A stretch of 64,000 bases of DNA from an uncultured virus (IMG/VR IMGVR_UViG_3300047557_000941). Its lineage: Duplodnaviria; Heunggongvirae; Uroviricota; Caudoviricetes; Crassvirales. The stretch spans positions 1 to 64,000 of IMG/VR virus record IMGVR_UViG_3300047557_000941. One strand, written 5' to 3'. The notes beneath the pieces were generated by a model. It was given only the letters and a program-made list of their open reading frames with translations, was not told where the DNA came from and made no database searches. Each line of letters opens with the position of its first letter. Within the stretch, counting starts at the first letter, position 1. This document shows, one piece after another, positions 42,816 through 57,594 of the stretch. The position numbers were made by a program, and so were the translations under genes.

Positions 42816-43105
42816 TTGCGTACTGGTGGTTCGAAGTTTATAGCTAAATATTCTCTGTATTTAAGGTCGCTGCCATCATTAGACCAATCCTTATAAATCG
42901 AATCCCAATTAGGTTCTAACCTTTCAGCGGTAAATCCTTGCAATGCGTATTCAGTAAATGAAAGAATTCGAGAACCTTCACCTCTATACCAAAGAGATAT
43001 ATCATCAAAAAAAACATATACGTAATCATCTGTTGCTACTCTTCCAACTTCCCCCCAACCATATCTTATATCGAATACTTTATCACCTGCTTTAAATCTT
43101 TCCAT
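42806..43105 (-). CDS. Hypothetical protein, paralogue of 44751..45146
   Basis: FKAGDKVF...WGEV...LSFTEYALQGF. Confidence 0.65.
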   Translation of the reverse strand: MERFKAGDKVFDIRYGWGEVGRVATDDYVYVFFDDISLWYRGEGSRILSFTEYALQGFTAERLEPNWDSIYKDWSNDGSDLKYREYLAINFEPPVRKCK

Positions 43106-43117
43106 GTCGTTTTAAGT

Positions 43118-43323
43118 TAAAGTTTACATTTGTACACGAAAAAGTGTACACTTTTTTTTAAAGTTTACATTTATAACTTACTGATTTATAATAAGTTATA
43201 TTTATTACTCTTTGATTATGTACAAAGTGAACAAAATATATAAGAAAAGAGAAAAAAATAATTTATCTAAAAAGAAAAAATATATATTCATCTAAGTCCC
43301 ACATATTTTGTTCATTTGTACAC
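43118..43323. other. Putative replication origin, copy 1
   Basis: Non-coding AT-rich tract with TGTACA/TTTACA/TGAACA repeats upstream of the primase operon; homologous to 52640..52905. Confidence 0.55.
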
Positions 43324-43351
43324 TAGAACGGTAGTTTAGAAAACTTCCATT

Positions 43352-43660
43352 TTAAAAAGGAAGGTCTTGTTCTTCCACCGTTGGAGTTGGTGCAGGAGCT
43401 GGAGCAGGTGCACTTTGCTTGGCCGTAGAGCCACCATCAGATGACCATACTAGCTTTGCATTACCTAAGTAAACTTTAGGGGCTTTAGCCTCACGTTCTT
43501 CTTGTGTTTGAGACTCATAAATACTAGCAGTGTTACCATACTGGTCTGCCTCGTCATTAATCGAGATAGTTACATTTGCGTAAGTACCTTTCTTACCTTC
43601 CACTAATTTAGATTTAGTGATTTTTTTTACATCTAATGATGCTGAAAATAATTGTGCCAT
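43352..43660 (-). CDS. Single-stranded DNA-binding protein-like
   Basis: Small beta-rich core, Pro/Ala linker and acidic EEQDLPF tail. Confidence 0.7.
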   Translation of the reverse strand: MAQLFSASLDVKKITKSKLVEGKKGTYANVTISINDEADQYGNTASIYESQTQEEREAKAPKVYLGNAKLVWSSDGGSTAKQSAPAPAPAPTPTVEEQDLPF

Positions 43661-52427: not shown

Positions 52428-52568
52428 ATGGCAAAAATGATTAAAGAATATGGTGGCAAGGAGAAGTACGCTTCTAAGTCTGCTATGATGAAGCACGAGA
52501 AAAAGGAAGGCAAGAAGGTAGAGAAGATGGAGAAGAAAGGTGTCTTTCCAAAGATGAAAAAGAAATAA
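52428..52568 (+). CDS. Small Lys/Met-rich basic protein (46 aa)
   Basis: Hand-translated MAKMIKEYGGKEKYASKSAMMKHEKKEGKK...KMKKK; has its own promoter box (52398) and terminator. Confidence 0.7.
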   Translation: MAKMIKEYGGKEKYASKSAMMKHEKKEGKKVEKMEKKGVFPKMKKK

Positions 52569-52594
52569 TTTTTATTTTAAACATCGTACTATTT

Positions 52595-52626
52595 AAAGAG
52601 ACTTGGCTATGCTGAGTCTTTTTTTT
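52595..52626 (+). terminator. Intrinsic terminator
   Basis: AGACTTGGC-TAT-GCTGAGTCT followed by a T run. Confidence 0.8.
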
Positions 52627-52639
52627 GCTCATTATCTTG

Positions 52640-52905
52640 TCTGTTTATACAATTCGTACACTTTTGTGACTTCTTTGTGTACAAAATATGTACAACTTGT
52701 ATTTTCTTACAACCACTTAACTTATTGATTATTAGTTATTTATATTAAGTATTTATTCTTTTATGAACAAAATGAACAAAATAAATAAGAAAAGTAAAAA
52801 AAATTTCACACGCTCAAAATAAAAAAATATATTTACGTAATGTGGCAAAAAAGTTTGCAAGTTTACATATTGTACATTTCATTTGTTTTTAGTATATTTG
52901 TACAA
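52640..52905. other. Putative replication origin, copy 2
   Basis: TGTACA/TGAACA repeats and an AT-rich core homologous to 43118..43323. Confidence 0.5.
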
Positions 52906-52919
52906 CTAATAAATATAAT

Positions 52920-53237
52920 ATGAAACCATACTTTTCAAAACCTACAAAATTGATCAGAGTTAACATCTCTCAGGAGGGTTGTGACACTGAGCATTTAATG
53001 TTCCAGGATTGCGACTTATTGCAATGTGCTCAAGAGCTAATGGGATTCTCTCACGAGATGGTAACGAGTGCAGATTCTAATCCATATGACAAGAAGTTAA
53101 CTATCCAGTGTCGTGAATGGGAGAACTCTAGAAACGGCTTGTCTAACACTTTTAGTTTCTTTGGACCAAGTCCGAGTAGCATGAAGGGTCTTATACTAAG
53201 ACATTTTGGCTATGGGCTAGAATATGAGGACAAATAA
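52920..53237 (+). CDS. Hypothetical protein
   Basis: 105-aa ORF with promoter box at 52893. Confidence 0.6.
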   Translation: MKPYFSKPTKLIRVNISQEGCDTEHLMFQDCDLLQCAQELMGFSHEMVTSADSNPYDKKLTIQCREWENSRNGLSNTFSFFGPSPSSMKGLILRHFGYGLEYEDK

Positions 53238-53288
53238 TCTTGCTTGGCATTACAATTGTATATAAATTTGTAACAAATAAAATCTAAA

Positions 53289-54848
53289 ATGATAGTAAAA
53301 GAGATCGTCTTCGGAGATGAAGGCAGACAGAAATTAATTAAGGGTGTTAATACAATTGCAAATGCAGTTGGGTCTACACTAGGAGCTCGTGGTCGCACGG
53401 TGCTTATTGAGTCGGAGCAACACGTTGGTGGCATTACAGTAACCAAGGATGGTGTGACCGTCGCTAAGTCAATTAACTTAATGGATCCAGCTGAGAACTT
53501 GGCTGTGATGATCATGCGAGAAGCATCTGAGAAGACGGCTAACTCAGCAGGTGATGGGACGACGACGAGTATGGTGCTGGCACAAGCCATCATCCATTCG
53601 GCAATGGGTGTGCTTACACCAGAAGACAATACCACACAAGTATTGCGTGATGTGCAGGCTGCAGCACTTAAGGTGGCTGAGGAGCTAACTGCTATGTCAA
53701 CGGAGATTACATCAGATAAGTTGGTGGACGTGGCGACTATCTCGGCCAATGGCGATGCGGAGATTGGCAAGATCATTGCTGATGCGTACAATCAAGTTGG
53801 CTTAAGTGGTGTAGTGACAGTTGGAGCATCCGAGACATCGGACACATACGCTGAGGTGGTCAGTGGCATGAAGATAGACAGAGGGTTTGCGAGTAAGTAC
53901 TTTGTGACAGACCATAAGAAGCAAGAGGCTGTGCTAGACAAGCCATACATCTTGGTGACTGACCAGCCCATTACAAACCTTAACGACATCTTGCCTATTC
54001 TAGAGTTCATCCACCAAGGCAGACATTCATTGCTTATTATTGGGGAGCTCGATGAGAACTCACTAAACTCACTTAACGTGAACAAGATTAAGTTGGGTCT
54101 AAAAGTAAGCACTATTATTCCTCCGTCATTTGGCTACAAGCGTCATCAGATCATGCAGGACATCGCTATTGCGACAGGGGCTAAGTATTTCTCTGAGCAG
54201 ACAGGTGACAACTTAATGATGGTCACTATTGACGACTGCGGACAAGCAGGCAAGGTGGTGAGCTCACGGTTCAATACAATTATCTTCGATGCTGTTGGAG
54301 CAGGGGATGAGAGAGTGCAAGAGTTGCAAGAGCAGATAGAGGTGGAGATGCAGGCTGTCGAGAAAGAATTCTTAAAAGAACGCATCGCTAATCTAGGTGG
54401 TGGGGTGGCTATCATCAAGGTGGGTGCTAACTCAGACATTGAGCAGAAAGAGAAGAAGGACCGGGTGGACGATGCGGTGTGTGCAGTACGTGCAGCACTA
54501 GAAGAAGGCATCCTTCCAGGTGGTGGCGTGGCGTTAAAAGATATCGCTGCTACTATGGACGTGGAGAACAAAGGCACCGAGATATTACAAATGGCGATGC
54601 TGGCTCCAATGATCAAGATACTATCCAATGCAGGCATAGATGTGGATGGTGCAGACTTTGATGAAGGTAAGCAGTTGTCTAAGGGAGGCATAGGGGTGAA
54701 CGTAGCTACAGGGGCATACTGCCACATGATGAGCGTTGGGATCATTGACCCGACTAAAGTGTGCAAGGAGGCTCTAAAAAATGCTGTATCTGTTGCAGTA
54801 ACACTATTATCTACAGAAACTGTCATAACAAATGTACGTCAAATGTAG
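53289..54848 (+). CDS. groEL: Phage-encoded chaperonin GroEL
   Basis: VTKDGVTVAKSI, AGDGTTT, ATISANGD, KDRVDDAV.A.RAALEEGILPGGG, GIIDPTKV. Confidence 0.95.
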   Translation: MIVKEIVFGDEGRQKLIKGVNTIANAVGSTLGARGRTVLIESEQHVGGITVTKDGVTVAKSINLMDPAENLAVMIMREASEKTANSAGDGTTTSMVLAQAIIHSAMGVLTPEDNTTQVLRDVQAAALKVAEELTAMSTEITSDKLVDVATISANGDAEIGKIIADAYNQVGLSGVVTVGASETSDTYAEVVSGMKIDRGFASKYFVTDHKKQEAVLDKPYILVTDQPITNLNDILPILEFIHQGRHSLLIIGELDENSLNSLNVNKIKLGLKVSTIIPPSFGYKRHQIMQDIAIATGAKYFSEQTGDNLMMVTIDDCGQAGKVVSSRFNTIIFDAVGAGDERVQELQEQIEVEMQAVEKEFLKERIANLGGGVAIIKVGANSDIEQKEKKDRVDDAVCAVRAALEEGILPGGGVALKDIAATMDVENKGTEILQMAMLAPMIKILSNAGIDVDGADFDEGKQLSKGGIGVNVATGAYCHMMSVGIIDPTKVCKEALKNAVSVAVTLLSTETVITNVRQM

Positions 54849-54967: not shown

Positions 54968-55471
54968 ATGGAAATTTGGAAACCAATTAAGGGTTATGAA
55001 GACTTATATGAAGTCAGTAACCTAGGAAGAGTAAACAGTTTATTCACAAGGAAAGGTAAAATAATGAAGCCTAAGGTAGAAAGAGATGGATATCTTAGGA
55101 TAGGATTTTGGAAAGAGGGCAAACAAAAGTATTATAATGTTCATCGATTAGTAGCAGAAGCATTTTTACTAGAAAAGCAAGATTACCAAAATCAGATAAA
55201 CCATATTAATAAAATAAAATCCGACAATAGAGTTGAAAATTTAGAATGGGTATCTACTATTGAAAATCATTTTCATAAAAATCTAAATAATAATACTAGT
55301 AGTAAATATGTTGGAGTTGCTTGGAGCAAAGAAAAAAATAAATGGGCTTCCTATATAAATTTTAAAAATAAAAAAGTACATTTGGGGGCATTTGACAATG
55401 AAGATTTAGCTCATAAGGCAAGAATAGATTTTCAAAATGAAAATAATATAATAAACAAGTATCTTAATTGA
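54968..55471 (+). CDS. NUMOD4-HNH-AP2 homing endonuclease
   Basis: EIWKPIKGYEDLYEVSNLGRV, VHRLVAEAF, INHINKIKSDNRVENLEW, SSKYVGVAW..KW.....HLGAF. Confidence 0.9.
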   Translation: MEIWKPIKGYEDLYEVSNLGRVNSLFTRKGKIMKPKVERDGYLRIGFWKEGKQKYYNVHRLVAEAFLLEKQDYQNQINHINKIKSDNRVENLEWVSTIENHFHKNLNNNTSSKYVGVAWSKEKNKWASYINFKNKKVHLGAFDNEDLAHKARIDFQNENNIINKYLN

Positions 55472-55686: not shown

Positions 55687-55799
55687 CGGTAATAACCAAC
55701 ATTAGAGCATAATATTGCACTTAATGGTGGAGAAAGTCAACAATTATATCATTTGGCATATAAATGTATAATATATTGCACATATTGTAAAATATATTT
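55683..55799. repeat. Palindrome array A
   Basis: Abutting imperfect palindromes, e.g. ATGACGGTAATAACCAACAT, AGAGCATAATATTGCACT, TTATATCATTTGGCATATAA, TGTATAATATATTGCACA. Confidence 0.55.
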
Positions 55800-55810
55800 A
55801 ACTTTACAGT

Positions 55811-56401
55811 ATGACAAAGACATATTTAATTTATGGACTTAGGTGTCCAAAGACAGATGACTATAGGTATATAGGCAAAAGTTCAAGTGGTATTAATAGA
55901 GCTAAATCACACCTAACCTATTCGCACAATGAATCAGTAAATCACTGGGTTCTTGAATTAAGAGAAGAAGGATTGGCTCCTTTGGTTGATGTAATTGAAC
56001 AATGCCAAGAAAGTGAATTAGTTATAAAAGAACATTTTTGGATTCAATATTATCAAAGAGTTGGATGTATATTGTTTAACCATATTAAGTACAAAGGCAA
56101 AGCGATAGAAGGTCTTGAAAAAGAAGTTGATAAAGAAGAATCTAGACTTAATGACAAAATTTCTTTAGTGAGGAATTTAATAAATGGAATGTCCTGTATA
56201 AGTGAATTTATTAAATATAGGCGAAAACAATTAAATATTTCACAACAAGAGTTGGCAGATTTAGCTAAAATATCAAGGGTTACAATACATAATATGGAAA
56301 ACAAAGATAAAAATTCTACCATATCAAATATAGAAACAGTACTTGATATATTGGGATGTGAATTGATGCCTTTAGTTAAAACGCCAAGAGGGAGCTATTA
56401 A
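55811..56401 (+). CDS. GIY-YIG-like nuclease domain fused to XRE-type HTH
   Basis: LIYGLRCP....RYIGKS...R...H, E.FWI..Y; C-terminal RRKQLNISQQELADLAKISRVTIHNMEN. Confidence 0.8.
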   Translation: MTKTYLIYGLRCPKTDDYRYIGKSSSGINRAKSHLTYSHNESVNHWVLELREEGLAPLVDVIEQCQESELVIKEHFWIQYYQRVGCILFNHIKYKGKAIEGLEKEVDKEESRLNDKISLVRNLINGMSCISEFIKYRRKQLNISQQELADLAKISRVTIHNMENKDKNSTISNIETVLDILGCELMPLVKTPRGSY

Positions 56402-56406
56402 ATAAT

Positions 56407-56653
56407 TTACAAATTCGGAAAAATTCCGAGTTTTGTAACAAATTTTGCCAAAATACGTTACAAAAATGTTAACTTATAAGTTAACAAATGTTAATAATCC
56501 AAACCAATATGGGATGGTAAATGATAATTATCCAAACCGTTACAATTTGGAACAGGTTGGAAGTGTGCATTACTAATATACACTATTGACGAAACTTGTA
56601 AAAAGTTGCAAGTTCTGATAATAAGGTTAAATAAAATTTACAAATTTGTAAAT
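56407..56653. repeat. Palindrome array B
   Basis: At least 8 abutting, mutually unrelated palindromes including perfect TGTTAACTTATAAGTTAACA (56467-56486) and ATTTACAAATTTGTAAAT (56636-56653). Confidence 0.75.
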
Positions 56654-56676
56654 AAATGTAAAATATAATTAATGTT

Positions 56677-56934
56677 ATGAAAGTAATCGGAAAGAATATT
56701 CTAATCGTGCCTCAAGAAGAGGAGACAAAGTCCAAGGGCGGCTTAATTATGACCGCAATGGATGCAAATGAGCTACGCTACAAGAAAGCAACCGTGGTAT
56801 CACAAGGCTCGCTAGTAGATGGAATTAAGCCAGGCTCATTTATCTACTTTGATCGTGCAGCTGGCCACACCATCCGCATCAATGAGGACCTATATACGGT
56901 CATCACAGAGAAAGATGTGGTAGTAGTTCTTTAA
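56677..56934 (+). CDS. groES: Co-chaperonin GroES
   Basis: MKVIGKNILIVP.EEE.KSKGGLIM mobile loop, ATVVSQG, IKPG, ITEKDVVVVL. Confidence 0.88.
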   Translation: MKVIGKNILIVPQEEETKSKGGLIMTAMDANELRYKKATVVSQGSLVDGIKPGSFIYFDRAAGHTIRINEDLYTVITEKDVVVVL

Positions 56935-57069: not shown

Positions 57070-57075
57070 AATATT

Positions 57076-57257
57076 AGTCAGGTGGCGGAAGGGTCGTATC
57101 AGGAGTTCCCGGCCGAAGGTAGACGCAAAAAGCCAACTCGTAGGGTAGTATTAAACTATCATAGTGTGGAAGCGAGTCTAAATAAGACAATCCCTGGTTC
57201 GTGGCTCGCATTAGCGGCTGGCACCAAGGCTTACAGGTTCGAATCCTGTCCTGACTA
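57076..57257 (+). ncRNA. tRNA-like RNA 1 (182 nt) with expanded D-loop and anticodon region
   Basis: Acceptor AGTCAGG/CCTGACT, TGGCGGAA...GGTAGACGC D arm, T arm ACAGG-TTCGAAT-CCTGT. Confidence 0.75.
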
Positions 57258-57263
57258 AACTTA

Positions 57264-57327
57264 CCTATCCGAAGGTTATGATGAAGCATTTTGTACCGTA
57301 TGTTCATAAAGTAGATAGGAACGGTAC
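57264..57327 (+). ncRNA. Predicted pseudoknot RNA between tRNA-like elements
   Basis: CCTATC/GATAGG, TTATGA/TCATAA, and loop GTACCGT pairing with 3' ACGGTAC. Confidence 0.6.
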
Positions 57328-57332
57328 TAATT

Positions 57333-57404
57333 AGTTAGGTGGGGTAATGGTAACCTAATTGGCTGAAACGCTCGAAGATACATGTTCGATTCATGTCCTA
57401 ACTA
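57333..57404 (+). ncRNA. tRNA-like RNA 2 (72 nt) with non-canonical anticodon arm
   Basis: Acceptor AGTTAGG/CCTAACT, D arm GGT-AATGGTA-ACC, T arm ACATG-TTCGATT-CATGT; GAA sits at the anticodon position but the stem pairs poorly. Confidence 0.7.
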
Positions 57405-57473
57405 CACTTTTAGTGATGTTGGTTACTATAGCATAGTAACTAAACTAATGACTGATGGAAAGACATCAAATTT

Positions 57474-57594
57474 TAGCCTGTAGTGGAATTGGTATACACT
57501 ATGTGAATTGGTTTGCATCCAATAGGTGTGTTAGCATAATAACAAACATAGTCGCTGTCACGGTGACTTGCGGGTTCGAATCCCGACTGGCTAC
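57474..57594 (+). ncRNA. tRNA-like RNA 3 (class II Leu-like scaffold) with branched anticodon region
   Basis: TAGCCTG/CTGGCTA, TAGTGGAATTGGTATACAC, TATGT/ACATA stem, long variable arm GTCGCTG/CGGTGAC, GCGGGTTCGAATCCCG. Confidence 0.72.

Follow-up and report, generated by a model that had tools for sequence, protein, structure and literature searches.

Between the groEL and groES genes of an uncultured phage lies an array of differing palindromes. Four adjacent units of this array (1, 2, 3 and 5) are, by sequence comparison, the best matches in the whole phage genome to host sequences, namely to the putative operators of two AbiEi families and of a HigA-type antitoxin, and to a palindrome inside Bro-N genes (PDC-S13). 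Arrays of this kind are real and widespread among freshwater phage contigs. We hold it very probable that the units mimic antitoxin operators of host toxin-antitoxin (TA) and abortive-infection modules. On balance, we also favour the idea that the array acts as a DNA decoy which titrates TA autorepressors in trans. A wider proposal is put forward tentatively, nearly as likely to hold as to fail: freshwater Bacteroidota phages may possess a protein-free, modular counter-defence made of collected operators amplified by replication, involving undescribed regulators and self-binding of Bro-N.

The virus record comprises 65,151 bases, and bases 1-64000 form the stretch analysed here (the window). 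The terminase matches 87 cultured or curated phage records, all of them Flavobacterium, Cellulophaga, Tenacibaculum or Maribacter phages except one uncultured; because of these matches a Bacteroidota host is very likely. The phage itself is a 65-kb relative of Bacteroidota podoviruses, and the sequencing runs holding its DNA are freshwater or aquatic. The main array is situated downstream of groEL, between an inserted gene with a helix-turn-helix (HTH) domain and groES (Table 1). The N-terminal 106 aa of the HTH protein belong to no Pfam family and contain what we take to be a GIY-YIG-like motif.

The groEL-groES junction is a hot spot of mobile genes, with a NUMOD4-HNH-AP2 gene (54968-55471) besides the HTH gene in the window, and with other HTH genes and small ORFs in five relatives. 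After groES, tRNA-like sequences with T-arm motifs occupy 57073-57590 in a block that differs among relatives; ARAGORN and Rfam call only one tRNA there (57333-57405, anticodon AAA). In front of groEL, positions 53263-53280 hold a likely groEL -7 box and, behind it, a unit-2 half-site. The long intergenic region 52560-52925 contains a second Bro-N-like dyad (52673-52697, 19/25) and has TGTACA dyads and A-rich blocks in common with the region 43100-43360.

Table 1. Genes, units and dyads at the groEL-groES junction (window positions)
Feature	Position	Strand	Remark
groEL	53289..54848	+	upstream anchor of the array locus; Pfam Cpn60_TCP1, E 1e-50
5' part of array	55695..55810	.	split from the rest by the inserted HTH gene
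HipB-like dyads, 5' part	55763-55784, 55786-55803	.	in the 5' part of the array
Inserted HTH gene, 196 aa	55811..56401	+	C-terminal XRE HTH; HTH_3, E 5e-11
Unit 1	56412..56432	.	putative mimic of 212-aa AbiEi-AbiEii operators; compatible with the GGA-N5-TCC SOS box
Unit 2	56431..56465	.	putative mimic of DUF6088-type AbiEi operators; 17-nt spacer, without -7 box
Nested half-site	56442..56458	.	weak resemblance to DUF6577-type AbiEi operators; similar to two host loci by eye
Unit 3	56466..56487	.	putative mimic of HigBA-type operators (operons with Gp49/RelE toxin and XRE antitoxin)
Unit 4	56486..56538	.	short dyad within a pair of 20-nt direct repeats (33 nt apart); in 12/20 relatives
Unit 5	56534..56558	.	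putative mimic of a 25-bp palindrome that Bacteroidota Bro-N genes (PDC-S13 in PADLOC) carry internally
Unit 6	56562..56588	.	dyad, inverted in place in 8 relatives
Unit 7	56585..56624	.	long imperfect dyad; conserved in 11/20 relatives
HipB-like dyads, 3' end	56623-56644, 56657-56679 (span 56623..56679)	.	flank the palindrome 56636-56653 and end at the groES start codon
Dyads	56415-56429, 56431-56465, 56467-56486, 56523-56532, 56531-56561, 56562-56584, 56593-56614, 56636-56653		
Perfect palindrome	56467-56486		10-bp arms
Perfect palindrome	56636-56653		9-bp arms
groES	56677..56934	+	downstream anchor of the array locus; Pfam Cpn10, E 5e-11

Every palindrome listed in the preliminary description of the locus is present at its place, and the region has no terminator-like site. 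The extent given for the array, 56407..56653, has to be revised, since the array starts at about 55695, upstream of the inserted gene. The stretch 55695-55810 is a part of it that was cut off by the HTH gene, because it is contiguous with the 3' part in two relatives (partly in a third) and because contigs of two sequencing runs join the two parts (joint 55777 to 56635). The units were also thought to stand nearly back to back; in fact they overlap rather than abut. They are indeed unrelated to each other, yet the region is not devoid of shared repeats: a 20-nt direct repeat occurs at 56486 and 56519, and a TTACAA/TGTAA half-site recurs. The view that it is neither CRISPR nor iterons stands, as there is no regularly spaced repeat and the sole repeat is the 20-nt one, present in two copies.

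Folding of 56402-56676 beats all of 200 dinucleotide shuffles (z -4.36 as RNA, -5.02 as DNA). Strict dyad counts are more modest. Six perfect arms of at least 6 bp are present, a number reached by 13 of 1000 shuffles; the observed counts of perfect arms of at least 7 bp and of one-mismatch arms of at least 9 bp are reached by 112 and 10 of 1000, respectively. Since these counts exceed chance only modestly (p about 0.01-0.1) and the region was chosen post hoc, palindrome density by itself carries little weight. The region contains no Rfam family. A sigma-70 scan yields 12 sites against a mean of 8.3, which is uninformative for Bacteroidota promoters. TAnnTTTG, which we take to be the consensus of the Bacteroidota -7 box, is absent from both strands of the array.

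The first two units resemble promoters of abiE operons. AbiEi is described as binding inverted repeats in its own promoter and thereby repressing it (PMC3985639, PMC7319586). A unit-1 pattern with 14 specified bases, searched in bacterial and archaeal genomes, gave at least 120 matches, and Bacteroidota make up 27 of the 80 named among the matches listed. The gene for a 212-aa AbiEi adjoins 12 of the 120 listed matches (two of the 12 share one promoter sequence), with the match lying 12-85 nt from the gene start. PADLOC assigns the 212-aa gene to AbiEi (E 1e-65 to 1e-75 for the four scanned) and the next gene to AbiEii. A search for the AbiEii family, performed without phage sequence, detected the toxin in 153 of the 301 genomes of Bacteroidia, including two unpublished genomes that were left out of later analysis; 109 of its listed matches (29 + 80 loci) were analysed, and 160 weaker ones lay outside the listing. 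When the phage genome was compared with 89 non-redundant abiEi promoters, unit 1 came first of 65,130 positions and unit 2 was the sixth peak. Among the three promoters most similar to unit 1, one had itself been found through the motif.

Further, symmetric motifs were learned for each family from host promoters only and scanned across the whole phage genome. The 212-aa AbiEi model (8 promoters) puts unit 1 on top with 13.4 against 10.2 bits, at the bottom of the host range. The DUF6088 AbiEi model (12 promoters, 35-bp dyad) puts unit 2 on top with 31.3 bits, against 7.1 for the next position and a host median of 35.6; this result alone is free of selection through the phage motif, by which the 212-aa, HigA, HipB and Bro-N families were chosen. 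The 17-nt spacer of unit 2 is common to 10 host DUF6088 promoters, and a -7 box (again by our presumed consensus) lies within 9 of the 10 host sites and is absent from the array. Four of the 10 host models, those for AbiEi of 241, 195, 273 and 250 aa, find nothing in the array; a fifth other AbiEi family gives a weak top match overlapping unit 2, which we discount, and the DUF6577-type model puts the half-site nested in unit 2 at rank 28. Units 1 and 2 match the dyad upstream of abiEi in inverted repeat and in spacing. Because tblastn with five AbiEi families finds no AbiEi homolog in the phage genome, they would represent mimics and not an AbiE locus.

Unit 1 also holds the motif GGA-N5-TCC exactly (56417-56427). 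This is a tested SOS motif of Bacteroidetes, and the group that uses it is described as belonging mainly to Flavobacteriaceae (PMC8565304). Unlike the SOS box as presented in that source, unit 1 has flanks and host contexts that point to 212-aa abiEi promoters from Chitinophagaceae, Spirosomataceae, Cyclobacteriaceae and Sphingobacteriaceae. The recurring context among the 120 listed genome matches is abiEi, with SOS promoters outside that collection.

Unit 3 was assigned to its partner only by a metagenome scan and a protein-led search; pattern searches in hosts did not exceed the control, and the 45 loci read from them had no context in common. Among 88 exact metagenome matches, about 13 precede operons of a Gp49/RelE toxin and an XRE antitoxin, or an XRE gene, and two sit in arrays of another phage lineage. 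In 29 of the 88 matches, the exact 18-mer is found next to an ArsR-type gene, only a few bases upstream of its start, and because of this neighbourhood the dyad appears to serve two regulator families. One XRE protein of the set has relatives in 42 of 131 Bacteroidia genomes. Unit 3 is matched at 15 or more of 20 positions in 8 of 30 Bacteroidia promoter windows, against none of 30 control windows. Motifs derived from HigBA-type promoters alone put it on top at four of six widths, with 19.8 against 14.9 bits at the best width. The five viral matches of its 20-mer all belong to the phage's own lineage.

The counterpart of unit 5 resides within a gene. The unit-5 pattern has 50 strand matches in 201 genomes, against 33 for the control, and 7 of 30 loci from this search contain Bro-N genes or remnants, which PADLOC labels PDC-S13 (E 3e-136). 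Compared with one host Bro-N variant, unit 5 is the best site of the phage genome with 22/25, followed by one site with 19 and the rest with 17 or less; an averaged Bro-N matrix failed to find it, and only matching to the nearest variant worked. In 30 Bro-N loci chosen by protein similarity, a 25-bp palindrome is fixed in place within a variable segment (27 instances in 26 of the 30 loci). Between 8 and 12 of its 12 pairs are complementary, and the variants differ on both sides of the dyad. From the fixed position and the two-sided changes we infer that Bro-N protein binds the palindrome within its own gene; the gene may thus encode its own operator in its specificity segment. PDC-S13 is a candidate defence system only, and we found no mention of it in the literature on PDC names. 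The phage has no Bro-N homolog by tblastn.

The outer parts of the array resemble hipB promoters. A HipB promoter model ranks position 55763 highest in the phage genome (16.5 against 10.3 bits) and 56623 at rank 21. Positions 55784, 56623 and 56655 resemble single host hipB sites; the dyads at the 3' end match three hipB promoters, and for 55784 one host site agrees at 21 of 23 positions. The HipB-like pattern at the 3' end of the array (unit 8) is not enriched in hosts, with 30 sites against 28 in the control. One locus from this search adjoins an XRE gene followed by a HipA-like gene, a label taken from sequence reading. Relatives of this hipB-like XRE locus occur in 30 of 201 genomes, and there paired 18-bp dyads (TGT-N12-ACA) flank the promoter. 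With moderate support, the array probably holds HipB-operator mimics as well, and some of these sites could serve the phage's own HTH protein. The perfect 16-mer of 56636-56653 has at least 115 viral matches, mostly in unrelated contexts.

For the three remaining units the searches returned no host partner. Unit 4 has no host match above shuffled units. Unit 6 shows no enrichment in hosts (12 sites, 12 in the control), and a longer pattern derived from it led to 30 loci whose contexts are mixed. Unit 7 has 15 host sites against 9, also in mixed contexts. DUF4143, Fic, RhuM and DUF1016 loci, from five genomes each, contain no match of units 4, 6 or 7 better than those of shuffled units or of loci selected by pattern; plasmid searches for these units found no host partner, and a short-protein search of 11 genomes came out empty.

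A groES search yielded 27 related loci, 20 of them close. Regular expressions detect at least one unit between groEL and groES in 19 of these 20, and the remaining one has other dyads; one relative is nearly identical to the window. Within the lineage the order of units is fixed while single units come and go, and the shortest arrays measure about 140 nt. In-place inversion affects unit 6 in several relatives (Table 1) and the core of unit 5 in two. The inserted HTH gene is absent from this place in 11 relatives, and all 11 keep the array. Two more distant related cultured phages have adjacent groEL and groES and no array, and blastn of the array against cultured phages gives chance matches only (E 0.3 or worse).

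In viral contigs, the unit-1 pattern has at least 120 matches, and those listed represent 64 non-redundant loci. A site of another family is present within 200 nt of unit 1 in 25 of the 64. Around these loci, 32 family matches fall in 25 kb of near flank, against 6 in 20 kb of distant flank (five of the six Bro-N-like, mostly from one coding stretch) and 0.8 in shuffles. The mixed arrays include operators of 241-aa and 195-aa AbiEi that are missing from the window, and their flanking genes differ among phage lineages. The palindromes were expected to recur in other phages in shuffled order: they do recur in new combinations, but within the lineage of the phage the order is conserved.

A second freshwater phage lineage, seen at eight loci, carries richer arrays with units absent from the window. 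At six of them the array is placed between convergent gene ends. Orientation was called from the longest ORF on each side in 25 loci, giving 10 convergent, 7 tandem and 8 uncalled, and we rely on the six clear convergent cases. The unit-2 pattern behaves differently. It likewise has at least 120 viral matches (61 non-redundant loci among those listed), with a site of another family nearby in 3 of the 61 only. A -7 box is included in 46 of 69 distinct viral unit-2-type sites. Many phages carry such a single DUF6088-AbiEi-type operator on a -7 box with no abiE genes adjacent, and no DUF6088 abiEi gene adjoins the unit-2 site among the 120 viral loci listed.

We suggest the following explanation. 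The expectation that the palindromes would be found in Bacteroidota promoters of TA or defence operons is borne out by four units, which match host sites of TA modules or of a defence candidate. That the dyads in Bacteroidota are operators we infer from their position, symmetry and family specificity. The array would then consist of double-stranded DNA operators copied from autoregulatory sites of at least two AbiEi families, of a HigA-type antitoxin, of Bro-N/PDC-S13 and probably of HipB. Phage replication would produce tens to hundreds of arrays, against one or two chromosomal operators per module. The excess of arrays could pull repressors onto phage DNA, so that host operons are derepressed and antitoxin is kept supplied; alternatively, antitoxin-toxin complexes and Bro-N protein might be parked on the phage DNA. 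Either way, abortive infection would be blunted, and one compact array could cover the patchy set of modules across host strains. The weakest step is the direction of the benefit, which is not obvious, as derepression also makes toxin, and in HigBA-type operons the toxin comes first.

To our knowledge, the known phage counter-defences against TA systems are proteins or RNA mimics, and the literature we covered, with most subscription journals outside its scope, holds nothing on phage antitoxin-operator arrays or on the palindrome inside Bro-N genes. Phage genomes with operators of host regulators do exist, as in the Spo0A boxes of phi29 and the LexA sites of GIL01. Those sites bind global regulators at phage promoters, whereas the predicted partners of the array are patchy TA autorepressors and the array has no promoter box. 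The AbiE system itself offers the closest view of the copied sites. In the AbiE promoters described (PMC3985639, PMC7319586), dyad operators bound by the antitoxin overlap the abiEi-abiEii promoter, and the host sites that units 1 and 2 seem to copy have the same position before PADLOC-confirmed abiEi genes. The phage array differs in having no abiE genes and no promoter box, its neighbours are operators of unrelated families, and its binding is predicted. AbiEi is reported to neutralise AbiEii by inducing autophosphorylation, and AbiE of S. agalactiae expressed in E. coli is reported to protect against 0 of 32 phages (10.64898/2026.01.19.700257), a result that speaks against the decoy reading.

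Like the array, pseudo-ToxI of phage PhiTE is a non-coding phage mimic of the nucleic-acid part of a TA system, by which PhiTE escapes abortive infection (PMC3475682). The same source describes pseudo-ToxI as RNA that is expressed from copies of a single unit and inhibits the toxin, whereas the array consists of differing DNA dyads matching repressor sites of several families. Tandem copies as in pseudo-ToxI are not seen in the array, whose units are unrelated and without Rfam match. Synthetic DNA sponges and decoy sites (PMC7686491, PMC8599769) are likewise arrays that titrate regulators in trans. The ones described there are engineered or chromosomal; the present array would be natural, phage-borne and aimed at autorepressors of defence modules.

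The main rival of the decoy is sensing in cis. Host repressors bound to the array might roadblock or repress the groEL-groES-tRNA transcript, and thereby tune phage genes to the modules of the host and their antitoxin state. We regard this as rather unlikely. The array is embedded in the groEL-groES unit, and RNA libraries contain contigs that run from groEL through it (carry-over of DNA is possible); a HipB-like site adjoins the groES start as in hipB, and a unit-2 half-site follows the groEL -7 box at 53263. Moreover, the lone unit-2-type sites of many phages, mostly with a -7 box, point to promoter control and argue against a pure decoy; it is possible that a host antitoxin directly controls phage promoters through them. 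The notion of a library of host operator mimics is partly supported, by the four matched units and by the recurrence of units in other phages, but the single sites on phage promoters keep the cis-regulatory reading alive. Against it speak the missing -7 box in the array, the related cultured phages with adjacent groEL and groES and no array, and the difficulty of rationalising one output for a dozen patchy modules. Arrays between convergent gene ends, as in the second lineage, have no downstream gene to repress. A decoy could also work in reverse, stripping antitoxins or derepressing toxins so that host translation or division slows down while phage tRNAs and chaperonins sustain phage synthesis. 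Toxin-first HigBA-type targets and the tRNA-like genes after groES would suit this scenario, but several array-bearing relatives have no tRNA block there, and translation toxins would hit the phage as well; we find it improbable.

It is slightly less probable still that the sites serve regulators of the phage, such as the adjacent XRE HTH, or that unit 1 is a plain SOS box. In a tblastn search with seven host regulators, a weak HipB-like match to the inserted HTH protein was the only one obtained (E 0.003), a HipB-like dyad lies just upstream of its gene, GGA-N5-TCC is a tested SOS motif in Bacteroidetes (PMC8565304), and exact unit-3 matches often adjoin an ArsR-type gene instead of a TA operon. 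The persistence of arrays in relatives lacking the HTH gene and the absence of AbiEi or Bro-N homologs from the phage weigh against a phage regulator, however, as does the abiEi context of the unit-1 pattern against a plain SOS box. The frequent truncation or loss of units between close relatives, with the resulting spread of array lengths, might suggest that the units are neutral remains of host promoters, once captured and then rearranged by inversions and deletions that hairpins mediate. We give this reading little credence, as no DUF6088 abiEi gene accompanies the listed viral unit-2 loci, dyads persist where spacers and promoter boxes have changed, and mixed arrays occur in several lineages. 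A multi-hairpin non-coding RNA, the alternative raised in the preliminary description, is disfavoured and very improbable. The folding z of -4.4 would fit it, and two RNA libraries hold contigs that span the array along with groEL and groES (5-11% of words present; the contigs carry no strand, ends or level). Yet Rfam gives no match, the perfect dyads are loop-less, and the units match host DNA operators. Arm mismatches in relatives (11 G-T, 7 A-C, 22 other) have no G-T bias, which together with the in-place inversions fits DNA dyads.

Taken together, we propose the decoy as the preferred reading of the array. As a naturally occurring set of antitoxin operators in DNA, it would be a counter-defence of another kind, one that gene-based screens cannot see. 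If the library reading is true, units 4, 6 and 7 mark further undescribed defence regulators, and the unassigned units could be used as baits for them. With a 275-bp fragment, the role of antitoxin autoregulation during infection becomes directly testable. In whichever direction the effect runs, the array would show which host modules matter to phages in nature, among them AbiE families and a defence candidate.
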